Assembly (NCBI GenBank): GCA_034669905.1
Contig: JAXMOL010000030.1
Coordinates: 25,507-89,506 of the forward strand
Reading direction: 5' to 3'
From: Candidatus Hydrogenedentota bacterium
GTDB lineage: Bacteria > Hydrogenedentota > Hydrogenedentia > Hydrogenedentales > JAEUWI01
Length of the DNA stretch: 64,000 bases
The notes below the pieces were generated by a model. It was not told the DNA's origin and made no database searches. It saw nothing but the letters and a program-made list of their open reading frames with translations. The position numbers and the translations under genes are program-made. Position 1 is the stretch's first letter. Each line of letters starts with the position of its first letter. Below are positions 1,743 to 21,506 of this stretch, piece by piece.

Positions 1743-1796
1743 TATATTGGTCGGGGTGGTAGGATTCGAACCTACGGCCCCCTGCTCCCAAAGCAG
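1743..1796 (-). repeat. att site: duplicated 3' part of tRNA-Pro (54-bp direct repeat)
   Basis: Identical to 11848-11901; spans the anticodon stem-loop to CCA plus 5 nt. Confidence 0.97.
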
Positions 1797-1939: not shown

Positions 1940-2398
1940 TTACCATCCACCCCGAAAAGCGCGGGGCTCGTAGCTCCGGACCCATCGCCGAATTGGGGTA
2001 CGGGACGGCCGTTTCTGCGCCTCGATTTCCTCTGGCGATAATTGCCATTTACGTAACACAACCACTGATTTAGTTGCGTTATCTGATTCGTTACTGTGTG
2101 TTTCGTTGTCATCCTCGGCGAACGCGTCAAAGATGATCTCTGTCAGTTCCTCGCGGTCGCCACTTGTCGGCAATCCCAAATTGGTAGCCACCTCGCGCAA
2201 TTCCTCGTCGCTCAGCGCATTTAGGTCTACTTCCTCATGGTCTGTATCGACTGAGGGGGAGTTTTCGTCACACGCGGCAACCTCGTGCGTTTTGCGTGCT
2301 TTCCAGGCCGCAACCTTGCACCTGTCATCACAGAATTTCCTTCGACGGCCTGTTTTTGGCTGTTCCAGCGGTTTTTCACAGTGCTGGCAAGTATCCAT
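1940..2398 (-). CDS. Zn-finger (CxxC...CxxxC, CGNR-like) plus SAP/Rho-N-like DNA-binding protein
   Basis: MDTCQHC...RRRKFCDDRCKVAAWKARK and DLNALSDEELREVATNLGLPTSGDREEL; AAAGGA RBS. Confidence 0.7.
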   Translation of the reverse strand: MDTCQHCEKPLEQPKTGRRRKFCDDRCKVAAWKARKTHEVAACDENSPSVDTDHEEVDLNALSDEELREVATNLGLPTSGDREELTEIIFDAFAEDDNETHSNESDNATKSVVVLRKWQLSPEEIEAQKRPSRTPIRRWVRSYEPRAFRGGW

Positions 2399-2457: not shown

Positions 2458-2508
2458 ACCCGCAGTGCGTCGTCTGACCGACCTCTACCCTCCCCCGGGG
2501 GGGGACCC
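2458..2508 (-). other. Candidate lambda-type cos packaging site
   Basis: Minus strand reads GGGTCCC-N26-AGACGACGCACT-GCGGGT; lambda reads GGGTCCT-N23-GGGCGGCGACCT-C-GCGGGT. Confidence 0.45.
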
Positions 2509-2557: not shown

Positions 2558-3031
2558 TCACGCGGTCGGTGTGGCCATGGTTCGTGCGGTTTGGCCCTGG
2601 TGGCAGGGTGCGCCATGCACGGGATGGGGTGCGCGGGCCTTCTGCACGGTGCGGGCTTCCAGTGCACGTAACCGCTCGCATGGCTCTATCGGTTCAAGGG
2701 CCAGATCCAGCGCGGCGGAATTGGTCGCCCTCATTCCATGGACCAGGTACAGCGCCACGATACGGCGTGTGCGTGCTACCCCATCCAAGCCCAGCGCCAC
2801 GGTGACCACCTGGGCCATGCGCCTATGCTGTTCGCCTCGGTTACGGCTCGCCTGCCTTGCGAGGTACCAGGCGGCCTTCAGGCGGTCTTGAAGTTGTTCC
2901 CGTGTCGGGGCCCCGCCATCGACCGGGAAAGAGTCATGGAAGGCAACCAGGGCGTCTTGGGCTTCGGGCGATATCTGGTGTTTGCACTCTTCGAAGTGTT
3001 GGATCACTTCCTCACGGCTTCGAAAGTTCAT
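2558..3031 (-). CDS. Hypothetical protein (157 aa), translationally coupled to rep
   Basis: ATG overlaps the rep TGA (TGATG) with GGAGG upstream; MNFRSREEVIQHF... Confidence 0.65.
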   Translation of the reverse strand: MNFRSREEVIQHFEECKHQISPEAQDALVAFHDSFPVDGGAPTREQLQDRLKAAWYLARQASRNRGEQHRRMAQVVTVALGLDGVARTRRIVALYLVHGMRATNSAALDLALEPIEPCERLRALEARTVQKARAPHPVHGAPCHQGQTARTMATPTA

Positions 3032-4035
3032 CAATGCACCTCCTTCGGCTTGGCAGGCAACCGCACGCCACGGGACTCCAGATGCTTTTTGCACTTGTTC
3101 GCAATGTAGGCCCCGGGCTTGTTTAGCGTTCCCAGCCCTTTCACCTCTCGGGCTTGAGGGTCCTTGCATTGCTCGACGTACTCGACAGCCTCAAAGAGCA
3201 CACCAACCCCGTCGTGAGCCTTCATCAGCCCGCCCACCTCCTTCCACCATGCACGGTAGTGCTCTGGATCGTCTGCAGCCTTTCGAAGCCGTCGCCAAAG
3301 CTCAGTGCCGTGGTGCTTCGAAAGGACCGACTCCGACAAATCCGAAACCGATGAAATCGCCGAATCCGACCGACCGACCGAATCCGACCTTCCCCCTGGT
3401 TCAGGGTTTGGCCTGGGCTTTGGCTTGTCACGTGGTCCGGGCTCGGTTCGGCTCGGTATCGGTATCGGCAAGGTATCGGTATCGGTATCGGTATCGGTAG
3501 GCGCGTTTCCGCGCGGAAACGCGCGATTCCGCGCGCGGCTGTTTTCCGGTGGGTTTTCCGGGCTATCTGGTGGCGTATCCTGGGGGTTTCCTGGGCCTGA
3601 ATCGGAGGGCGGATCACCCCCTGGATTGTCCATCATTTTCTTGTAGTCTCGCTCAATTTCCGCCCGATCTTTCGTATGGATCCGGGTCAACTTCGGGATG
3701 GAACCATCCGCGAAAAAGGCGCGGGACTTCACGAGGGCATTGTGTACCGAGTCTTCGCAATGTTCCGCCCAATCATGGACAATCAACCTGTGCCTGTCGT
3801 CACGGTCCAACCAGTTACGGTTAACAAGGGCCTCAATCAATTCGCCTGGGTCGCCGTCGTACTCGAGGCCCATTGCTAACTCTTCGTCTGTAAACTTCCC
3901 TATGTTGCCCGCTGGTGTGTTTCGCGCTGTAAAGTCCCACATGAGTTGCAGTAGACCCACAGCGGCATATAGGGGAAGGTTCAGATCCTTCTTCAGGAGT
4001 TGAAACTTCATGAGGCTGTCAGTGCCTTTTTTCAT
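3031..4035 (-). CDS. Phage replication initiator (replisome organizer-like) with repeat-rich linker
   Basis: N-terminal winged-helix-like region LMWDF...GELIEALVNRNWLD...LIVHDWAEH; Pro/Asp/Thr-rich linker encoded by DNA repeats; C-terminal NKPGAYIANKC; GGAGG RBS. Confidence 0.7.
   Translation of the reverse strand: MKKGTDSLMKFQLLKKDLNLPLYAAVGLLQLMWDFTARNTPAGNIGKFTDEELAMGLEYDGDPGELIEALVNRNWLDRDDRHRLIVHDWAEHCEDSVHNALVKSRAFFADGSIPKLTRIHTKDRAEIERDYKKMMDNPGGDPPSDSGPGNPQDTPPDSPENPPENSRARNRAFPRGNAPTDTDTDTDTLPIPIPSRTEPGPRDKPKPRPNPEPGGRSDSVGRSDSAISSVSDLSESVLSKHHGTELWRRLRKAADDPEHYRAWWKEVGGLMKAHDGVGVLFEAVEYVEQCKDPQAREVKGLGTLNKPGAYIANKCKKHLESRGVRLPAKPKEVH
3326..3631. repeat. Iteron-like repeats and 24-bp palindrome inside rep (candidate origin)
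   Basis: GGTATC x2 and x4 (3455-3499); palindrome GCGCGTTTCCGCGCGGAAACGCGC (3501-3524); degenerate 12-bp-period repeats; CCGAATCCGACC x2. Confidence 0.6.
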
Positions 4036-4228: not shown

Positions 4229-5830
4229 CTACAGGACTTCACGGGCCTGTGCGGGGTTTCCCCCTGGGTTTCGCTGATTGGAGCCCTTACCGGCCGATTT
4301 CAGGGCCGCCGTGTTTTCCCTGAGCGCTTGGGTCATTTCTCCCACCCCCTCCTTCAGGCCCTCGGTGTCAACGGGGAATTCAGCACGGGCCGCTTCCACA
4401 TCGAAGGTCCGGGCACGGGTGGCCTTCAATCGCTCCAATTGTGCGGGGGAATACGTGCCGGCATTGTATGGCGAATTATTCTCGAGTCGCTCCAAGTCCC
4501 GTTGCCTGCGGAACTCAAACAGATCCCGCAACATTTCATCGCGCAGCGGGCCCGGCGCCGTGTTTCGGATTTCACCAATGCGGCCGCGCTCGAGAGTCTG
4601 CCGGCTCCCTATACCGCCCAACACACGACCAAAAAATGCACCCCAGCTATTCTGGTCTTCGCCCGTGTGCAGCTGCACAGCCAGGGCACCAAGATCCTGA
4701 TTTCGGGAGAATTTCGAAAGCATAGTTTGCGGGGCTGTGTCGTTGGCAATGTTTGGGGCGTTTTCCCGGAGTTTTGCATTGATCGCATTCAGTTCCTGCA
4801 TTTTCGTGACCGGGTCTTCCAGGCGCTTGGCGATAATTTCCACCGCCTTGCTCGTGTCGCCTGAAATTTTCCCAAGGTCCTCGATAGACCCGGAAACTTC
4901 GTCAATGCTGGAAGCCAAATTTTGAGCCGTGACAATACTTTGCTTGCCGAACAAGTCGATCATCTCGCCCTTGCTGGACTTGAAAAGCTCTTTCAGCTGG
5001 ACCAGCTTTTCTTGATAACTTCCCGTCAGTTGGATGCCCTTCTTCTGGGCCTCCTCCATGATCAGGAAAACGTTTCGTAGTCCGGTGAAGGTTTTCTCAA
5101 TGGAGCCGGTTTTGAGGGTGGACCCAATCACCGTGCCCAACACCTCGTCAAGGGTGACGCCCACCACGTCCCCCGCACTGGCTAATTCAGGAAGCCGTGT
5201 TGCCAGGTCTTCAAAGCTCAGGCGTGCCTTGTCCTGGGTGTACATAAGTTTGTTCAAAAGCTCGGTGACGTTCTCCACTTCCCCGCCATAGATCTGGTAT
5301 GAGGAAGTAAGCAGGTTTTGGGCGGTTACCAGGTCACCCCCCGTGGCCTTCGAAAGGTCTTTCATAGCCTGCCCGAGATCCCCTCGTACCGCATCGGAAA
5401 GGTTCCCGGTGCCGGATGTCAGATCAAACAGTGCCTGGGCTCCTTGGGCCGCTGTCACATCCAAAGCCGACGACAGCAACACGACCTCCCTACGCAACCG
5501 GGCCAGATCGCCGGCGTTGTCGCCCAGACTCGAAAGAGGTACGATCGCCTTTTCGAGTTCGAGCTGCTTAGCATCGATGGCCTGGGCGGTCTGATTGACT
5601 TTGCCCAACCCGGCGGCCGCTGCCCCAAGTCCGGCCAGGCCTGCCACGCCCATTAATACACTGCGCCCCAAGCCTTTCATAGTCATGGCGGTCGCTTGGC
5701 CTTCCCGGCGCAAACCGCGCATGCCGTTCCGGGTGTCGCGAAACACGGCTTTGGTAGTTGCCCGCACTCCGGACGTATTGCCCGTTTCAAAATTCATTTT
5801 GACAGTAGTGTCGCCCTTGGACGTACTCAT
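4229..5830 (-). CDS. Phage tail tape measure protein (TP901/PhageMin_Tail-like), short, 533 aa
   Basis: Helical Ala/Gly-rich protein with hydrophobic GVAGLAGLGAAAAG, then AQGAQALFDLTSG...TQDKARLSFEDLATRLPELASAGDVVGVTLDEVLG...TFTGLRNVF, which matches the TMP core pattern. Confidence 0.8.
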   Translation of the reverse strand: MSTSKGDTTVKMNFETGNTSGVRATTKAVFRDTRNGMRGLRREGQATAMTMKGLGRSVLMGVAGLAGLGAAAAGLGKVNQTAQAIDAKQLELEKAIVPLSSLGDNAGDLARLRREVVLLSSALDVTAAQGAQALFDLTSGTGNLSDAVRGDLGQAMKDLSKATGGDLVTAQNLLTSSYQIYGGEVENVTELLNKLMYTQDKARLSFEDLATRLPELASAGDVVGVTLDEVLGTVIGSTLKTGSIEKTFTGLRNVFLIMEEAQKKGIQLTGSYQEKLVQLKELFKSSKGEMIDLFGKQSIVTAQNLASSIDEVSGSIEDLGKISGDTSKAVEIIAKRLEDPVTKMQELNAINAKLRENAPNIANDTAPQTMLSKFSRNQDLGALAVQLHTGEDQNSWGAFFGRVLGGIGSRQTLERGRIGEIRNTAPGPLRDEMLRDLFEFRRQRDLERLENNSPYNAGTYSPAQLERLKATRARTFDVEAARAEFPVDTEGLKEGVGEMTQALRENTAALKSAGKGSNQRNPGGNPAQAREVL

Positions 5831-6028
5831 TCACTTCCTTTCAGTTTCGCGCCAAACTTGCGCTACGTATTTCCAAAATCCCAAACGCTCACGGCCATCG
5901 CGGGCGGTCTTGCAGAACTGGTCAGCACGGGCTGTTTTGTCTGCCCATCGCTTCGACGTGGCCGCGATCCAGTCCAGCCAGGGCCGGGGCAGTCGCCACA
6001 GGATGGCCTCAACAATCTTCCAGAGCAT
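5831..6028 (-). CDS. Small Trp/Arg-rich hypothetical protein (65 aa)
   Basis: ATG overlaps the upstream TGA (TGATG); its stop abuts the TMP ATG. Confidence 0.55.
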   Translation of the reverse strand: MLWKIVEAILWRLPRPWLDWIAATSKRWADKTARADQFCKTARDGRERLGFWKYVAQVWRETERK

Positions 6029-6357
6029 CAAAGCCCTTCCCGTTCCAGGCGGGCGGCCGCACGGGTGGCCGCCTCGGTACGTTCGGCGTTGGTTCGGTGC
6101 GGGGCAATCTCGGGCCGGGTTTCGCCGTCCTTCAACTGAAAATACGCGACATCCTGATCGGCGATCTCCTTGAAGAACTCCGAAGCCTTGGACGCATCCA
6201 CAAACAACCTCTTCCCCACCCGTTGATGAGGTAGGCGCACCTGTTGTCCATTGCGCGTTTTGATGCCCTTTCGACACCAACGCCAGATCGTTGATGGGGC
6301 GGGATCCCCTGGTACCAATTTCGCAAACTCGCCAATTGTGACCATGTTCGACTTCAT
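6028..6357 (-). CDS. AlpA/excisionase-like HTH protein (DUF1580-like)
   Basis: TIGEFAKLVPGDPAPSTIWRWCRKG...VRLPHQRVGKRLFV MerR/Xis-like motif; GGAG RBS. Confidence 0.8.
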   Translation of the reverse strand: MKSNMVTIGEFAKLVPGDPAPSTIWRWCRKGIKTRNGQQVRLPHQRVGKRLFVDASKASEFFKEIADQDVAYFQLKDGETRPEIAPHRTNAERTEAATRAAARLEREGL

Positions 6358-6404
6358 TGCAAAACTTCTCCATTTCTTGTTTTTGTTGCATCGTTCGATT
6401 TTTT

Positions 6405-6432
6405 AAAACCGGGTGGACCGCGGCCCACCCGG
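6405..6432 (-). terminator. Terminator after the capsid gene
   Basis: CCGGGTGG/CCACCCGG stem followed by TTTT on the minus strand. Confidence 0.55.
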
Positions 6433-6478
6433 CCCCTGAAGGAGGGACAGCATCACAGGCTGTCGCCACAAAAAAGGA

Positions 6479-7585
6479 CTATTGACCCACGCTTGCCCAA
6501 CCGGCGCGGTGGTCGATGGTGGTACCACCGAAAACGCTCTTGACCTTCCAGGTCAGCACGTCGGATTGAATCCAAGCGGCATTTGAGGATCCCCGGTCAG
6601 GCACGGTCACCTGGGGGAAGTCGTACCCGGCGAGGGTGCCGAACTCACCGGCGGGAATATTCGCCGGATCCGTGAACAGCGCCCACGAGGTCGCTCCTTT
6701 CGTACCGGAGGTCACGAGGGACGGGATCCACGGGTTGACCAGCAACTGAATGTTGAGGTCCGCAAGCACGTTACGGGTGCCCATCCGTTCTGGGGTTCCG
6801 CTACCAGACCCCGAAGTATCCACGGGATAAACGAGGTTGATGGAGTTGAGGATTTCCATGGCAAGCAACTGCAGGGCGGGGGGCACCATAAGGTACTTGG
6901 GTTGTGCCACGATGGGATCGCCGTCCGGGTCGGTATATGCGAGCATTTGACCAACCGCGGTGCGCAGATTCTCCACGCTCAAGGGAAGCGAGGATACCCC
7001 GCTTGGCTGGGCATCAAAGAACGCGTCAACCGGGCCGTCTGCACCGAAATACAGGGAGCTCAAAAACGCTTCTAGCGTCCTAATCAGGGCACGGGCCATA
7101 CGCATTGGCATGGTCTCGAATACCCGAACGGGGTCATTCGCCAGGGCCTCTTCGGTCGCCTGAAATAAGGCACCGTACTTGATGACTTTGTAGGTGTCGG
7201 TCTGGCTTTGCTCCAAACTGATCTGCCCATACTCGGCACCCTCCCGAACAATAGGAAGGGTGGTCTCCAGGCCATCAAAGCGGATAGCCTCAACAGGTCC
7301 GAATGTGGGGATCCCTCGGCGCACCCGGACGATGTTTTCCATGACGCGGGGCGTGTGAGTGTACAGGGCTTGCAGTTCGCGGGCGGTCACGTCGGCAGTG
7401 AGAAGCGCAGCGCTCCCGGTGGTGGTGGCAAAACATTGCCGAATGCGTTCAGCACGACGGCGAGGATCGCCACCATTGCCAAAGAGCAGATCAGCGGCGG
7501 CGGCCAGTTCCGCTTCAGAGAATTGGCTCTGTCGCCGGGCATCCTCGGCGGCCCATCCTTGGGCGAGTTCTAAAAGTTCAGGCAT
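6479..7585 (-). CDS. Major capsid protein, Mu gpT-like (HK97 fold)
   Basis: IVREGAEY, YKVIKYGALFQATEEALANDP, PKYLMVPPAL, WKVKSVFGGTTIDHR motifs; start placed after AAGGAG RBS. Confidence 0.85.
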   Translation of the reverse strand: MPELLELAQGWAAEDARRQSQFSEAELAAAADLLFGNGGDPRRRAERIRQCFATTTGSAALLTADVTARELQALYTHTPRVMENIVRVRRGIPTFGPVEAIRFDGLETTLPIVREGAEYGQISLEQSQTDTYKVIKYGALFQATEEALANDPVRVFETMPMRMARALIRTLEAFLSSLYFGADGPVDAFFDAQPSGVSSLPLSVENLRTAVGQMLAYTDPDGDPIVAQPKYLMVPPALQLLAMEILNSINLVYPVDTSGSGSGTPERMGTRNVLADLNIQLLVNPWIPSLVTSGTKGATSWALFTDPANIPAGEFGTLAGYDFPQVTVPDRGSSNAAWIQSDVLTWKVKSVFGGTTIDHRAGWASVGQ

Positions 7586-7599
7586 TACGACGGGTCTCC

Positions 7600-8025
7600 T
7601 TAGGAGGTTTTGATCTTCACGCAAATATTGGACGCGGACGCGGATCCGGACAGGGCGTTAAGCGCGTACCCGAAAAGGGTGTGGCCGCTGGTCGCATCGA
7701 CTGACAGCACGGCGGTGCTATCGTCAATGTAGACCGCATCACCAACGGCAACGTCTTCCGTGCCTTGGTCGTCAGAGGCCACGACAGGCAGCGAAAATAC
7801 CCCGCTGGTCTGTAGCACCAAGTCCGCATCGTTTCCGGTGGGCTCGGTGACCACGACACCAACCAGGCCACCCACGATGGCGGCATCACCCAGTTGAGGG
7901 GGATCATTGGGTGCGGTGACTACGTTTTCATTCAATGTCAGCTTGGACCCGCCTTGTGTCGGGGCTGGGCTGATTTCCCGGCCAGCCGTTGCGCCGGTCG
8001 GATAATATGCGGTGGGGTATCCCAT
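7600..8025 (-). CDS. Capsid decoration/cement protein (DUF2190-like)
   Basis: GDAAIVGGLVGVV...GVFSLP...VGDAVYID...LFGYAL pattern; adjacent to the MCP. Confidence 0.8.
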   Translation of the reverse strand: MGYPTAYYPTGATAGREISPAPTQGGSKLTLNENVVTAPNDPPQLGDAAIVGGLVGVVVTEPTGNDADLVLQTSGVFSLPVVASDDQGTEDVAVGDAVYIDDSTAVLSVDATSGHTLFGYALNALSGSASASNICVKIKTS

Positions 8026-9071
8026 CAGGTTCCTTTCTTCGCGGCCGATTCGGCCATTTTGCGGGCGGTGGCTTCGGGAAATCCGAGTCGCTGAAACCGG
8101 CCAAAAAACACATCTTCCAGTTGCCCCGGATTGGGCGCACGGCCCGGATATTCGCGGGGCTCAGCGGACTCCAGTTGAATCTTTTCTGATTCGGCCTCAA
8201 GCTCGAGCAGCAAATTGCTTCGTTCGCTCAACGCGATCAGTTCTTCCAAAAAATCATCGTAGGCCATGCCGGTTTCAATGGCATGGAAGGCAAACCCGTT
8301 CGGGTGTTTCTTCGTGCTCTGGAAGTGCTGAGGCTTGCACTTGGACAGCATCTTCGTGATGCGGTCCCGCTCTGCCATGACGGCAGCTGGAACGTCTCCC
8401 CCGTCTGGCTTGTGGTGGGGCCCAACATTAAGGCCTAGAACTTTTGCTTGGTGGTTCAGGGCCACTTGGGCGCGCTCCACGAAGTCCGGGTTCTGCAGGG
8501 CTTTGCGGAGCCCCACCATAAGATCGGCGGAAAATTGTAGTCCCTCGATGGGCTGGGCGAATAGGCCATCACCCGACGCGGGTTCGTCGACCAGGTCAAC
8601 CGCATGCAGGGCATCGACCCGAAGCACTGGCAACAGGGGCGCCCCGCCATCGTCGAACCCTTCACGCTCCACGATGTCAGCACTGACCACCATACTGCTA
8701 CCCAGCATTGTGGGGTGGTCCGTGGCCATACGCTGGATGTGCGCAAGCATGGCCGGGTTGCTCGCATCGCTCAGATGCAGATCAGCCAATACATAATCGC
8801 CCGCTCTTCGGAAGTTTTGACGCACTCCGCAAAATGTGCCCAGCGAGTCGGTACACATAGACGGGTGCCCAAAGCGGGACTTGATCCCATCGGGCGCGGC
8901 GTTGCCTAACGCTACAACCTGCTCGAGGGTGGTTTCGTCGATGATTACCCCGTGACCAGTGGCAGGGCCCAGCATACAAATTTGTGTGCCGTGCAGGATG
9001 CCGGGTGCATCGCTGTTCGGCTTCATGGCACCCGTGGGCAGGGCTGGCGTCTCGAAAGTGAAACGGGTCAT
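8025..9071 (-). CDS. Prohead maturation protease / scaffold protein
   Basis: KSRFGHP, LADLHL, GSSM and LHAVDLVDEPA motifs of HK97/Mu-type prohead proteases, followed by a helical C-terminal region; coupled to both neighbours. Confidence 0.75.
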   Translation of the reverse strand: MTRFTFETPALPTGAMKPNSDAPGILHGTQICMLGPATGHGVIIDETTLEQVVALGNAAPDGIKSRFGHPSMCTDSLGTFCGVRQNFRRAGDYVLADLHLSDASNPAMLAHIQRMATDHPTMLGSSMVVSADIVEREGFDDGGAPLLPVLRVDALHAVDLVDEPASGDGLFAQPIEGLQFSADLMVGLRKALQNPDFVERAQVALNHQAKVLGLNVGPHHKPDGGDVPAAVMAERDRITKMLSKCKPQHFQSTKKHPNGFAFHAIETGMAYDDFLEELIALSERSNLLLELEAESEKIQLESAEPREYPGRAPNPGQLEDVFFGRFQRLGFPEATARKMAESAAKKGT

Positions 9072-9694
9072 TCAGCAGCGGCCTCCAGGGCGTCACGTTT
9101 GCTCTGGGCTACCTGTCCGGCAAGGAACTGTGCCGAGTTTTCGAAACTCGGGATCGGCGTCACAAACCGCCCGCATTCGCCCCAAAAATCAGGCCAGCCA
9201 TCCGTGCCAGTCACAGCGGCCAGTGCGATTTGAGCGAGTTCCAGCGGGTCGGTGAAGGCCTGCCCGGCGTCAATCGTGGTTAAAGCGTCGTAAAATTGTT
9301 GGCGTGGTTCTTCGCACGCCCAATCCCGAACCCACCCATCGAGGGCGACGGCGAGCAATTCTCGATAGAGGGCTTTCTCCAGACTCCACGACGCGGCCGT
9401 CTTCAAATTAACAATTCGGCTCAATGTCGCCGGGTCCACTCCCAAGCGTCTGGCGAGTTCCCGCTGTCGAATTCCAAGGGCCGATGCGGCCATTTTGAAT
9501 CGGATCGCGGAAACCTCCTTCGCGGCCTGCAGTCGCCACTCAAGGGCAAACGGCCCATGCGGGTGGCCTGATTCGATGGCGGCCCGGTTAACCGCATCCT
9601 GGGCCGCGCCGGCCTTTTGGCCGAACGGACTCGTTGCGGTCAGTCCAACAACGGCGTTTGGGAAGGTCTCCCGGAAAATTTCCAAGTCAGTCAT
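9068..9694 (-). CDS. XRE/Cro-type HTH regulator with extra domains
   Basis: LGIRQRELARRLGVDPATLSRIVN HTH; ATGA overlap with the protease gene. Confidence 0.75.
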   Translation of the reverse strand: MTDLEIFRETFPNAVVGLTATSPFGQKAGAAQDAVNRAAIESGHPHGPFALEWRLQAAKEVSAIRFKMAASALGIRQRELARRLGVDPATLSRIVNLKTAASWSLEKALYRELLAVALDGWVRDWACEEPRQQFYDALTTIDAGQAFTDPLELAQIALAAVTGTDGWPDFWGECGRFVTPIPSFENSAQFLAGQVAQSKRDALEAAAE

Positions 9695-9781
9695 AAATCG
9701 CCTTTCAAAGTGATCCGTATCATTGGCTCGTGCAATTTGTACCAAAAGCCTAACACAGCAAAACTCTGCTGTGCTGTGCCA

Positions 9782-9863
9782 ATGTGAAATATATTTCCGT
9801 TTTCAATGATTAATTTTTGGCCTGTTCCACATTGGAACCCAAAAACAGAAATATATTTCACAT
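9782..9863. promoter_or_regulatory. Paired palindromic operators in an AT-rich promoter region
   Basis: Perfect 16-bp inverted repeat ATGTGAAATATATTTC (9782-9797) / GAAATATATTTCACAT (9848-9863); each arm contains the palindrome GAAATATATTTC. Confidence 0.6.
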
Positions 9864-10047: not shown

Positions 10048-10380
10048 TTATTCGGCAGTGCTCAACCGCCGCATTCCCCGCATGGCAGGGGACCGAAAGC
10101 GATCACGGGTACGCGTCAGGCGGTGCCCACATTTAATGCACTTTGTGGGTGCAACATAACCCGAATTGATATGTTCCGAATCAGACACCCCGGGCATATT
10201 CAGTTTCCCGCACGCGGAGCACGTCCGCAGCGCGCTTTCACAGTCAGTTACACCTCGAGCCTGTCGGGCTTTGTGGCCCAGTTCGTTGGCGAGGTAGTCC
10301 GCCAGGCTTTTCCCGGCTTCCTTGGCCTGGGCCTGGAAGGTGGTTGCATTCTGTTCGCTCAGTTCGATACTTACTCGCAT
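10048..10380 (-). CDS. RHH/CopG-like plus Zn-ribbon small regulator
   Basis: MRVSIELSE...AKEAGKSLADYL followed by CSACG...CIKCG. Confidence 0.65.
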   Translation of the reverse strand: MRVSIELSEQNATTFQAQAKEAGKSLADYLANELGHKARQARGVTDCESALRTCSACGKLNMPGVSDSEHINSGYVAPTKCIKCGHRLTRTRDRFRSPAMRGMRRLSTAE

Positions 10381-10538: not shown

Positions 10539-11687
10539 TCAGCCCAATTCCTTCGCGATTTCCAGGGCCAGGGCCTCGTTTTTCTCCGCGTAGAGCTCCG
10601 ATGTGTCTACCCGGCTATGACCTAACGCAATCGACGCGGCCTCGAGTCCGGATTGTTTCCGCACCTCGGTGCCGTGGTTGTGCCTCAGTCGGTGAGGGTG
10701 CCAATGGGGCACACCCGCCTTCACACATGCCCGACGAATGGCCCGGGCGTATGAATAGCGGTCGTAGCTCTCGCTTAGCGTGCGGGTGGTCTTCCTGGGG
10801 TTCGGCTTCTGATTCTTTCGGCGGTGGGTAGTCGCTTGGGCCGCCCTCTCCCGTGCCGCATCTTTTGGGCTGAATAGATAGGCGGACACAGGACGATCCT
10901 GCAGGAAGGGACGGATCACGGCCTGGGCGCGGGGTCCGAAGTACAACGTGCGGCGCTTCCCTCGGTGGGCGGACTTGTGCCGGTCCAGGCGCACAGTCCA
11001 GACTTCCCCGGAAGTATCCAGGTCCACGGGGCGCAAATAGCAGATCTCAGATGTCCGGGCACCGGTGAGTAGTTGCAGCTGAATCAGGGCCCAGACTTGG
11101 CGGGATACGTGGGGCTCTACCGCTTCCACATGGGCCATGGGCACCGGTAACACCTTTTGGGGTTCCCGTGCCTGGGTCCGGCCCGCTTTCAACCCTTCCA
11201 CGGCGTCCAGGGCCGTAAGGGTCTGGGGGTTGACCAACTCATGGGACACCCCCCACCGAAAGATTGCCTTAGTGATGGATGTTTTCTTGTTGGCCGTGGT
11301 TCGGGCGGCACCCTCCGCGATCCAGTGCTCACGCAATGCGCGCAATGCCAGGGGCCCGAAGGCTTCGCACTGGTCCGAACCGTACAAGCGGCGAATATCG
11401 CGGATTACGCCACGGATCACGCCAATGTGGGTGCCCTCTTGATCATAGAACTCCTTTGCATAGGTCCAGTACCGTTCCAGGAGTTCGACTATCAGGAGGC
11501 CTTCGGCGGGGGCGGGAAGGTTCCGACCACAGGCCAACCACTCCTGAATGACACGGTCGTAGTTGGCCTGAACGTCTGGGGAATCCGACCGGCCAAGGTA
11601 TTTTCGTCGGCCGTTCAGATTGACGTAGTATTGCCCGGAAGCCTTGTGAAGGCGCATTTCGGGGATTGTGGGGCGGCGGCCGCTCAT
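10539..11687 (-). CDS. int: Tyrosine recombinase / integrase
   Basis: TGARTSE, HK, HRLRH, LGHS...Y catalytic residues; N-terminal arm-binding-like domain; adjacent to the tRNA att. Confidence 0.97.
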   Translation of the reverse strand: MSGRRPTIPEMRLHKASGQYYVNLNGRRKYLGRSDSPDVQANYDRVIQEWLACGRNLPAPAEGLLIVELLERYWTYAKEFYDQEGTHIGVIRGVIRDIRRLYGSDQCEAFGPLALRALREHWIAEGAARTTANKKTSITKAIFRWGVSHELVNPQTLTALDAVEGLKAGRTQAREPQKVLPVPMAHVEAVEPHVSRQVWALIQLQLLTGARTSEICYLRPVDLDTSGEVWTVRLDRHKSAHRGKRRTLYFGPRAQAVIRPFLQDRPVSAYLFSPKDAARERAAQATTHRRKNQKPNPRKTTRTLSESYDRYSYARAIRRACVKAGVPHWHPHRLRHNHGTEVRKQSGLEAASIALGHSRVDTSELYAEKNEALALEIAKELG

Positions 11688-11847: not shown

Positions 11848-11901
11848 TATATTGGTCGGGGTGGTAGGATTCGAACCTACGGCCCCCTGCTCCCAAAGCA
11901 G
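11848..11901 (-). repeat. att site overlapping the intact tRNA-Pro
   Basis: Identical to 1743-1796. Confidence 0.97.
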
Positions 11902-11930
11902 GTGCGCTAACCGGACTGCGCCACACCCCG
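11853..11930 (-). tRNA. tRNA-Pro(UGG)
   Basis: CGGGGTG acceptor stem, CCTGC-TTTGGGA-GCAGG anticodon arm, GTTCGAATC T loop, encoded CCA. Confidence 0.97.
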
Positions 11931-18962: not shown

Positions 18963-20024
18963 TTACCGGGGAATGAAACTCGTGTTCGCCTTCAGGCCCT
19001 CGATCCACGTCGCGATCAGCTTGGACGCGTTCTCCACGTCTTTCAGGGAAACCAACTCCACCGGTGTGTGCATGTAGCGGTTGGGGATGCCGATGAGTCC
19101 CGTCGCCACACCACCCCGGCTCAACTGCATGGCGTTGGCATCCGTTCCCGTTCCCCGTGGCATGGCCAAGGGCTGCAGGGGAATCTTCGCCTTCTTGGCC
19201 GCATCCAGGATGCCCTTGTGCACCACCGGATTGATGTTGGGACCCCGGCTGATGATGGGTCCCGCACCGATAGCGGTCTCGCCATAGCGCTCCCCTTCTC
19301 CCCGGGGGTGGTCCGTCGCCCAGGCTACGTCTACCGCGAGGCCGGCATGGGGCTGACACCCATAGGCACTCGTCGTGGCACCGCGAAGGCCAATCTCTTC
19401 CTGCACGGTGGTCACGGCGTACACGGCCACGTTAATTTTTTTCTTGGCCAGGAGGCGCACGGCCTCGAGAATAACAAAGGCACCCACGCGATCATCGAGG
19501 GCACGGGCCACCACCATGTCATTACGCAGCTCCTGGTAGCCCACGTCGATGGTGATGGGGTCACCGATACCAATAACCTTTTCGGCGTCCTTCTTATCCT
19601 TCGCACCAATATCGATCCACATCTCGTGCATCTCGAGGGCCTTATTCCGATCATCCGGGGGCGTCAGGTGGATGGCCTTACGGCCGATAACGCCGGATAC
19701 GGGACCCTTGGCACCATGGACCGTGATGCGCTGGCCACCGAGAACGGCGCTGTCCACACCGCCAATAGGGACAAATCCGGCGAAGCCGTTGGCATCGATG
19801 GTGTTGACCATGAGGCCGATTTCGTCCACGTGTCCGGCGAGCATGATACGCAGATCCGCCCCTTTATTCAGTACGTGATACTGGTTGCCATGGACATCTT
19901 TGTAGATTTCGCCCGCGAAGGGCTCCATGTACTTTTTACAGACCCGCTGGATTTTTTCCTCAAATCCCGAGGGGCTGGGTGTGGCTAAGAGTTTCTTCAG
20001 AAAATCAAGCGATTCTTTACGCAT
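18963..20024 (-). CDS. M42 family aminopeptidase
   Basis: SPSGFE, GHVDEIG, ALDDRVG, QEEIGLRGA, RYMHTPVE. Confidence 0.93.
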   Translation of the reverse strand: MRKESLDFLKKLLATPSPSGFEEKIQRVCKKYMEPFAGEIYKDVHGNQYHVLNKGADLRIMLAGHVDEIGLMVNTIDANGFAGFVPIGGVDSAVLGGQRITVHGAKGPVSGVIGRKAIHLTPPDDRNKALEMHEMWIDIGAKDKKDAEKVIGIGDPITIDVGYQELRNDMVVARALDDRVGAFVILEAVRLLAKKKINVAVYAVTTVQEEIGLRGATTSAYGCQPHAGLAVDVAWATDHPRGEGERYGETAIGAGPIISRGPNINPVVHKGILDAAKKAKIPLQPLAMPRGTGTDANAMQLSRGGVATGLIGIPNRYMHTPVELVSLKDVENASKLIATWIEGLKANTSFIPR

Positions 20025-20103
20025 TACGGCATTCTCCTTCCGCGATTGAAGGCCCTATGGTACCGAAGGCACCAGGGTGATTGCATGTTGACCGAAATTG
20101 GAG

Positions 20104-21153
20104 TCAAAGGGGGGTGTAGTCGGAATCGCCGGTGCACTGGAGTACCCAGCCGGTGAGCAGCTCAATGCAGCTCGCCACATCGTGAAGACAAACCATCTCC
20201 ACGGCTGTGTGCATATAGCGATTGGGAATGCCCATATCCAGGGTCGCCACCCCACCGCGGGTCCGCTGCAGGGCACTGGCGTCGGTCCCGTCGGCATCGG
20301 GCTCGGCACGAAACTGAAGAGGGATGGCATTCTGTTTGGCCACCCCCTGGAACTCCGCCAGCAATTGGGGATTTACCCCCGCACCACGGGCGAGAATGGG
20401 CCCGGCAGACAAGGCGGTTTCCCCCCAACGTGCGCCATCGGCGTGCGGGTGATCGGTGGCGAAGTTCACATCGAGGTTAATGGCGACTTGCGGGTCGCAG
20501 TGGTAGCCACTCGTCTTCGCACCGCGCAGCCCCACCTCTTCCTGGACGGAAGTTACGCCCACCACATCCACCGCCAATTTCCGCCGGGACAATCGCTTCA
20601 AGGTCTCCATCAGGATAAACACCCCGATGCGATTGTCCAGGCCCCGGGCAGCCACACGGTCATTGCGCAGCCAGGTCACGGGGGTATCGAGGACAAGCGT
20701 GTCTCCAATGGAGACCAACCTGGCGGCTTCCTTTTTGCTGCGGGCGCCAATGTCCACCCAGAGCTTGTCGACTGCGACGGCTTCCGGCTTGGCGTCCGGG
20801 GAGCGAAAGTGAATGGGGCGGCACCCGATAACGCCCGGCACATTCCCGATGCGTACCCGCTGCCCCTGGAGGGTACTGCCATCCACCCCGCCGATTGGGG
20901 AAATCCGTAGAAAGCCGTTGGCGTCGATCCCCCGCACCATGAGTCCAATTTCGTCGCAATGGGCACACAACATGACCCGAGGCCTGCCCTCGTGGGGCAG
21001 GGGATAATATTGGTTGCCGTGCACGTCCCGATAAATACCGCGTACCGAAGTACGAAGCTGCCGGGTCAGGTGCGCCTGAACCAGCCCCTCCTCTCCCGAC
21101 GGGCTGGCCAGGGAAAGCAATTGGGCCAGGCGTTTTCGGGCCGACGCTTTCAT
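20104..21153 (-). CDS. M42 family aminopeptidase (second paralog)
   Basis: AHCDEIG, GLDNRIG, QEEVGLRGA, RYMHTAVE. Confidence 0.92.
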   Translation of the reverse strand: MKASARKRLAQLLSLASPSGEEGLVQAHLTRQLRTSVRGIYRDVHGNQYYPLPHEGRPRVMLCAHCDEIGLMVRGIDANGFLRISPIGGVDGSTLQGQRVRIGNVPGVIGCRPIHFRSPDAKPEAVAVDKLWVDIGARSKKEAARLVSIGDTLVLDTPVTWLRNDRVAARGLDNRIGVFILMETLKRLSRRKLAVDVVGVTSVQEEVGLRGAKTSGYHCDPQVAINLDVNFATDHPHADGARWGETALSAGPILARGAGVNPQLLAEFQGVAKQNAIPLQFRAEPDADGTDASALQRTRGGVATLDMGIPNRYMHTAVEMVCLHDVASCIELLTGWVLQCTGDSDYTPL

Positions 21154-21506
21154 GCCGGACACACCGAAATCTGCATGCGTTGGATTACCATGGAACCAGG
21201 GGGCCCTTCTTCTCAGCCTACTTTGCCGTTGATCAGGCTTTCTTTCGTCTCGATTTTGGATTCCGAAATGGTATTGACGGTATCACTCGCCGGACGGGGG
21301 GGACGGGTAACGGTCCTTACATGCTTCATCATTTTCTCCTGCCATGAATATACAGCGCGTCGCTGTTGGTTGCGTTTCTTCCCAGCACTTGGATAGTATC
21401 ACCAAAGGTGCGGGCAGATGCCAGCTTCATCCCAGGAAACTTCAACACCGCTGGTCCCTCCGCACCTGAGGACTCCCCGATTGTCTGGAAAGGTGTTTGC
21501 ACTCCG

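Follow-up and report, generated by a model that had tools for sequence, protein, structure and literature searches.

Satellites that encode their own tape measure protein (TMP) have already been published, namely PLEs, EPIPs and some cf-PICIs, and the idea that such a TMP templates a chimeric tail has been published as well (PMC12987554, PMC12822802). PLEs (PLE1/4/11 of Vibrio cholerae, with ICP1 as helper) are integrated satellites that carry a TMP gene together with a small neighbouring gene and only a partial tail pathway, with the helper providing the tube and most tail parts. Virions were shown to contain the PLE11 TMP, which determines how long the tail becomes and makes it about 10 nm shorter; when tmp is deleted, transduction drops by about 99.9%. 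The TMPs of PLE11 and ICP1 are 20% identical, and how the satellite TMP wins over that of the helper is stated to be unknown (PMC12987554). EPIPs, described from Mycolicibacterium aichiense, are about 11 kb long and encode a TMP without other tail proteins, and their tails are longer than those of the helper; their gene list includes a major capsid protein, though the text also says that capsid proteins are lacking (PMC12822802). cf-PICIs encode their own capsid and protease, an integrase, an AlpA/Xis-like regulator and a replication gene, and depend on helper tails (PMC10085698); some of them encode putative TMPs (PMC12987554).

Here, we analyzed a 64,000-nt stretch of DNA from a Candidatus Hydrogenedentota bacterium (hereafter, the window), which contains a satellite-like element with a TMP gene. 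Like PLEs, the element is integrated and pairs its TMP with a small neighbouring gene, and a helper is proposed to supply the tube and most tail parts. However, PLEs use the ICP1 capsid protein and a contractile tail, whereas the element has its own capsid, cement and likely protease genes and points to a cos siphophage; moreover, PLEs encode a recognizable chaperone, and PLE11 also a hub, while neither a hub nor a recognizable chaperone was found in the element (PMC12987554). The Vibrio host, the ICP1 helper and the use of the helper capsid protein set PLEs apart from the element, a separation that is based on these features rather than on direct comparison with PLE proteins. With EPIPs, the element shares its approximate size and a TMP without other tail proteins, but the small terminase, head-tail adaptor, stopper and serine integrase listed for EPIPs (PMC12822802) were not detected, and its integrase is of the tyrosine type. 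The cf-PICI gene set is present (with the protease inferred), yet none of the cf-PICI core genes for TerL, TerS, portal, head-tail adaptor and connector (PMC10085698) was detected, and the capsid protein is PF25209-type, unlike those of cf-PICIs. The SatelliteFinder model for PICIs, finally, comprises a small terminase and no tail gene, whereas the element gave no TerS match and has a TMP. Judged by its genes, the element appears PLE-like in its tail module but belongs to none of the PLE, cf-PICI, PICI and EPIP classes. Phage satellites of Hydrogenedentota were not found in any paper, with most subscription papers lying outside the search scope, and neither the TMP family, the host group nor the 65-aa partner described below was found in the literature searched.

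By analogy to these systems, we consider it rather probable that this integrated 10-kb element is a capsid-encoding cos satellite, the TMP of which would template chimeric tails from helper parts.

A satellite-like element with capsid and tape measure genes

The element comprises 10,159 bp bounded by a perfect 54-nt direct repeat, of which the copy at 11848-11901 lies inside tRNA-Pro, and all of its genes are located on the minus strand (Table 1). The gene labelled as a likely protease was named because its phage homologues are found directly behind a portal gene or fused to a capsid domain.

Table 1. Features of the element, with positions in the window.
Feature	Position	Strand	Evidence
att direct repeat, 3' part of tRNA-Pro, distal end	1743..1796	.	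54 nt, 100% identical to 11848-11901
Zinc-finger-like (CxxC..C..C) and SAP-like protein	1940..2398	-	Pfam SAP below cut-off; homologues in both sister elements, L002 and L003
Putative cos-like packaging site: cosQ-like hexamer, 23 nt, cosN-like 13-mer	2467..2508	-	motif conservation, lambda spacing
Hypothetical protein, ~158 aa	2558..3034	-	weak homologue in L002 only, E 9e-5; no family match
Replication initiator (rep)	3031..4035	-	phrog_9474, E 6.6e-14; 44% to L002; another replication module in L003
TMP, 533 aa, PhageMin_Tail/TP901 type	4229..5830	-	HMM libraries and fold matches
ORF65, 65 aa, predicted all-helical, candidate TMP chaperone (from position only)	5831..6028	-	conserved; no family
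Xis/AlpA-like DNA-binding protein	6028..6357	-	DUF1580, E 4e-4, below cut-off; homologue in L002, none found in L003
Major capsid protein	6479..7624	-	PF25209, 111 bits; 61-68% to sister elements
Cement/decoration protein	7600..8025	-	PF09956, 46.5 bits; phrog_122
Likely prohead protease/scaffold	8025..9071	-	context of phage homologues; no relevant library match
Xre-type HTH regulator, coupled to head operon	9068..9745	-	HTH_3 over cut-off; homologues in both sisters
Ribbon-helix-helix/zinc-ribbon-like small protein	10048..10380	-	weak Pfam matches only
Tyrosine integrase	10539..11687	-	PF00589, 61 bits
att direct repeat	11848..11901	.	within tRNA-Pro(TGG) 11853-11930 (-)

Scans of the element ORFs with Pfam, PHROG and NCBIfam detected no portal, terminase or tail tube gene; furthermore, no head-tail adaptor, connector or stopper was detected among these ORFs, and a small terminase was not found with 2 TerS queries or in the Pfam and PHROG scans. 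A preliminary description of the locus had noted that no tail tube, baseplate or fibre gene lies nearby; the whole genome (95.7% complete, 102 contigs) was matched by none of 20 tail, portal and terminase queries at E<=1e-3. The TerL of the phage L037 and the profiles PF05136, PF04860, PF03237 and PF03354 likewise revealed no TerL or portal in this genome, and a resident helper phage was not found with the terminase, portal and 20 tail/packaging queries. A match to a lambda tube query (E=0.017) was dismissed, as it lies antisense inside the protease gene of L002.

In 4 contig sets from 1 study, no att joint was found and the depth of the element was similar to that of its flanks, it being noted that contigs cannot show the absence of an excised form. 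An apparent 7470-9255 joint was dismissed, since it is formed by 20 letters of a deep foreign contig. A promoter scan returned 3 sites compared to 3.3 expected. Upstream of the HTH-head operon, a 22-nt inverted repeat (9782-9863; 95% complementary, arms 38 nt apart) may represent an operator or origin, and short hexamer repeats inside rep (3453-3503), which translate into a (TD)n/(IP)n stretch, may be iterons or encode a low-complexity linker. Among the host genes of the window, two similar ORFs lie in tandem at 18963-21162 (-), which may encode M42-type peptidases.

The 533-aa ORF encodes a conserved tape measure protein

The preliminary description had placed a 533-aa TMP-like gene between a Xis-like gene and rep. 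The ORF is indeed open and intact over its entire length, and its product exceeds the cut-offs of both PF10145 (42.5 bits vs the curated 33.2, residues 120-293) and TIGR01760 (30.4 vs 28.8 bits), with 8 of its 10 PHROG matches being named TMP. AlphaFold predicted a purely helical structure (mean pLDDT 70), for which 79 similar folds were retrieved from BFVD at E<=0.001, with TMPs and minor tail proteins ranking first; among the 50 matches listed, all named ones but one are TMPs, minor tail proteins or phage-related proteins. A PDB fold search of the model gave no match at E<=0.001. The ORF encodes a real TMP, which is the single PF10145 match in its genome. Its flanks are as first described, except that ORF65 intervenes between the Xis-like gene and the TMP gene. 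The gene does not occupy the tail-operon position between chaperone and tail-tip genes, as it is followed by rep and preceded by the family-less ORF65.

A protein search (8000 scored) assigned the TMP to a family of 28 proteins including itself, with lengths of 457-706 aa, 25 of which were taken into the family alignment. As read from the printed termini, an N-terminal motif is common to 24 of the 28 proteins and a C-terminal Gly-Gly..Glu motif to 26, and the spread in length arises mainly from insertions in the N-terminal helical region. Among the window element and its sisters L002 and L003, TMP identity amounts to 38-44%, codon position 3 identity is 0.28-0.33 vs 0.60-0.63 at position 2, and dS is saturated. 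Third codon positions have therefore come near saturation while the protein was kept. That the gene is a truncated fragment of a longer TMP was rejected, since a search for longer proteins returned only 2 weak 1258-aa matches among 7997 scored and the termini are conserved. A lack of TMP homology, or a truncated fragment that is not conserved, had been named beforehand as the findings that would speak against a genuine TMP; because of the TMP homology, the conserved termini and the saturated third positions with the protein kept, the gene is neither, and its family is conserved from end to end.

The family alignment matched 4 of 135 genomes of the phylum (the genome studied here, two of the same genus and a distant one). 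No relative was found in IMG/VR with two alignments or among GenBank phages, and JGI metagenomes yielded one weak match (22%). It should be noted that the genomic context is visible for a minority of the 28-protein family, among them the 3 close members, and that some of the remaining members, including some of a 14-row clade in the TMP tree (47 rows, with a long-branch warning), could be phage genes. Atlas clusters of PF10145 proteins with 479-749 aa are 99-100% viral.

A 65-aa partner precedes the TMP gene

The gene had been called stand-alone, a term that had to be given up, since in all three elements ORF65 is coupled directly upstream. ORF65 (5831-6028, -) overlaps the stop codon of the Xis-like gene and ends directly at the start codon of the TMP gene, and it is accordingly coupled at both ends. 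L002 and L003 each have a homologue at this position, and in each of the 3 pairwise comparisons none of 5000 shuffles reached the alignment score. Two more homologues were found beyond the three elements; their contigs equal those of the TMPs P0002 and P0005 in length, so that they may be linked to these TMPs. A 212-aa frame (5831-6469) that overlaps the Xis-like gene was rejected as a chance frame, because ORF65 of L003 starts at its own ATG without a Xis gene upstream.

The slot directly before the TMP gene is the usual place of tail assembly chaperones (PMC12846349), and in the lambda gene order G-T-H, chaperone genes precede that of the TMP. From its position alone, ORF65 is a candidate TMP chaperone; its product is predicted to be helical. 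No usable match to a known chaperone, Rta-like or defence protein was obtained from Atlas, Pfam, NCBIfam, PADLOC, BFVD or 20,097 local frames. Nor does ORF65 appear to be the frameshift product of a chaperone gene with a slippery site, the upstream gene being Xis-like or absent and ORF65 having its own ATG.

The preliminary description had also considered that the TMP interferes with helper tail assembly. In that case, the TMP or ORF65 would mainly poison this assembly, either as a decoy for chaperone/tip complexes or as an Rta-like blocker, and the element itself would use helper-type tails. ORF65 is small, family-less and TMP-adjacent, with a size like that of the 80-aa Rta (PMC12987554), and satellites with tail-blocking (Tai) proteins are reported to exist (PMC11364771). 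However, both termini and near-full length are kept in 24-26 of the 28 TMP proteins, which would be needless for a decoy; Rta is described as lying outside the PLE tail cluster and as dispensable for chimeric tails (PMC12987554); and 8 proteins gave no PADLOC match. We therefore regard poisoning as the main function as unlikely.

The TMP resembles those of candidate helpers in length

Whether the TMP is short, as the preliminary description had it, depends on the comparison. Intact-looking prophage TMP frames of the phylum, in which PF10145 matches occur in 27 of 135 genomes, range from about 600 to 1755 aa. In contrast, the tail operon of L037, a phage that shares the cos-like motif described below, is of the non-contractile, lambda-like kind and encodes a TMP of 516 aa, relatives of which (frames of 520-609 aa) were found in 6 of the 25 records that share the cos-like motif or the head-protease family, and the TMP of the tail operon L019 has 550 aa. 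On the basis of these frames, the satellite TMP appears short compared to many prophage TMPs of the phylum and not short compared to the candidate helper group. The likeness to helper-type TMPs is confined to length, as the L037 TMP is not detectably homologous to the satellite family (probability 0.4%). The tail of about 80 nm proposed initially is an upper bound rather than an estimate: at 0.145 nm/aa, a tail of 59-77 nm is predicted, depending on whether the 127-aa end correction reported for TP901-1 (PMC5099701) is applied. Among the roles proposed for the TMP in the preliminary description, the templating of chimeric tails from helper subunits is best supported, with PLE11 as the analogy, although these tails would not be short relative to those of the likely helper group.

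Since the TMP has a length like that of candidate-helper TMPs, a change in tail length would not be the gain for the element, which suggests that it either evades competition or benefits from a matched function in entry. Taken to its end, the latter would mean that the TMP is kept for ejection or piloting and fits the particle of the element, with tail length being incidental or set by the helper. TMPs are reported to aid DNA transit (PMC5099701), and residues 58-76 form a hydrophobic stretch rich in Gly and Ala (Kyte-Doolittle 1.78), which recurs in the family and weakly backs a channel role. This stretch is, however, the sole hydrophobic segment of the protein and mild compared to those of the 1258-aa TMPs (1.9-2.5), and family length varies by N-terminal helical insertions, as would be expected of a ruler. 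We consider it unlikely that entry is the reason for which the TMP is kept, but this role is not exclusive of the templating of chimeric tails.

A cos-like motif suggests lambda-type helpers

At 2467-2508 (-), a non-coding segment that is conserved in L002 contains a hexamer and a 13-mer spaced by 23 nt, here termed cosQ-like and cosN-like; a further conserved block follows the motif in the window and L002. In lambda, the same hexamer lies 24 nt before the genome end. A search pattern was drawn up with the window, L002 and three phage loci already in view. The window has a single match to it, compared to 0 in 100 shuffles, and 2 of 135 genomes (the genome studied here and G069) have one match each, with both copies inside these elements. 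The pattern furthermore matches 16 IMG/VR viral contigs, in all of which (16/16) a homologue of lambda gpA follows downstream on the same strand at a distance of 2.0-2.7 kb. The pattern had been shaped by 3 of the contigs and not by the other 13, one of which repeats the L108 sequence. Within the DNA fetched, 7 of the 16 contigs also encode a homologue of the protease of the element. The exact satellite version of the motif has no viral match in IMG/VR, and each of the 16 phage copies deviates from this version at 2 of the 13 cosN-like positions. In a quick protease tree, the satellite proteases form their own clade, with weak support (0.50) for joining the proteases of cos-motif phages.

These phages (IMG/VR L031, L033, L037, L100-L115) thus share with the element the cos-like motif with the same spacing, a homologous protease-like gene and, in the 516-aa protein, a TMP of similar length, but they carry genes for terminase, portal, neck, tube and tip, and the TMP and capsid of L037 belong to other families than those of the element. 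Motif and gene content suggest lambda-type cos phages as the helper group. With its own TMP, its own capsid genes and a likely packaging signal, the element would likely parasitize lambda-like phages.

A chimeric-tail satellite could also depend on another helper, e.g., of the L019 type, with the motif being a leftover. L019 (1680-4930; G121:C192), a tail operon with a PHROG match for the TMP only, holds the nearest tail-operon relative of the satellite TMP, which aligns over 340 columns (probability 98.8%), and the chaperone gene before this TMP terminates at an A9 slippery run, beyond which the -1 frame continues for a short stretch. In addition, the motif variant of L003 has 3 viral matches, none with a lambda-type terminase homologue in its locus. 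However, between the window and L002, the motif, its 23-nt spacing and the flanking DNA have been preserved despite near-saturated third codon positions, and the tree support that joins L019 to the TMP family is weak (90/76). L019 is moreover a 5-kb fragment with the terminase outside of view, so that it may itself stem from a cos phage. We judge a helper other than a lambda-type cos phage to be quite improbable.

Related elements within the order

All 3 close TMP family members with visible context sit in integrase-bearing elements of ~10-11 kb with the same head-TMP block. The order HTH-protease-cement-capsid-ORF65-TMP is kept in L002 and L003, which come from two congeneric genomes, and the three elements occupy different sites with swapped integrase and replication modules. 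The L002 element comprises 10,596 bp with a 48-nt att pair at tRNA-Val. L003 differs from the window element in both its integrase and its replication module, and no clear att was found for it beyond an 11-nt repeat. In a complete genome of the genus (G068; L024, 10571-10856), capsid-gene fragments that are 56-73% identical to the gene of the element and contain a stop appear to be the relic of a related element.

That the window element is itself a decayed prophage which lost portal, terminase and tail genes and retained the TMP as a leftover is very improbable, for although no helper was found in its genome and the relic in the genus consists only of capsid fragments with a stop, the 54-nt att pair is perfect, all ORFs are open, and the same gene set occurs in three deeply diverged elements at different sites.

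Two further att-bounded elements also combine a capsid gene with a TMP. L095 (110-9986; G103:C125; 9,877 bp, 18-nt repeat at tRNA-Arg) encodes an integrase, a chaperone-like ORF of ~98 aa (assigned by eye), a 722-aa TMP, a rep-like gene, a capsid protein and Xis; portal and terminase were not seen in it. Its capsid protein belongs to another family than that of the window element, and its TMP is sister to a phage TMP (tree support 100/100). L025 (6450-18778; G091:C10; 12,329 bp, 37-nt repeat at tRNA-Lys) holds a protease-capsid fusion, an integrase gene that an IS-like gene seems to interrupt, a 157-aa gene with a homologue in the L019 tail operon, and a 499-aa protein without a relevant library match, which is considered TMP-like because it is homologous to a 498-aa protein of L090 with a PF10145 match below cut-off. 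The latter is encoded on a 6.9-kb contig (L090, 1032-6914; G109:C385) along with a primase, a prohead protease and a 91-aa ORF, which may represent a further satellite. Within this bacterial order, at least 3 TMP captures would be implied, with the long-branch warning of the TMP tree applying to this count.

Possible course of infection and significance

For the capsid-encoding cos satellite that we favour, the whole infection cycle is pieced together from gene content, conservation and the motif. Upon infection by a lambda-type cos phage, the element would excise and replicate, and its own capsid shell would assemble on the helper portal. The helper terminase would then cut at the cos-like site and fill the shell. 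The TMP of the element, possibly escorted by ORF65, would take the place of the helper TMP and be combined with helper tube, tip and neck proteins. The resulting tail would be non-contractile and about 60-77 nm long, similar in length to that of the helper, and the TMP would subsequently act in DNA ejection, as TMPs generally do. As the L037 TMP is not detectably homologous, a fit of the satellite TMP to that tube and tip is assumed here.

A more far-reaching combination of claims is doubtful as a whole: the satellite family would make only the DNA-contacting parts of the virion, i.e., its shell and the core of its tail, while motor, portal, neck, tube and tip would be borrowed; ORF65 would be a novel, minimal factor through which helper tails come to be assembled on the satellite TMP; and TMP capture would have occurred at least three times among satellites of one order.

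The practical weight of these findings is limited, because the host and helper are uncultured or unknown. With regard to satellite biology, this family of elements would strip the tail-piracy module to two genes, the TMP gene and its 65-aa partner. As the element points to a non-contractile cos helper, it would offer a small system in which to examine whether siphophages, too, are subject to tail piracy. Furthermore, if ORF65 steers helper assembly onto the satellite TMP, it would supply the step that is still unknown in PLE-type tail piracy.
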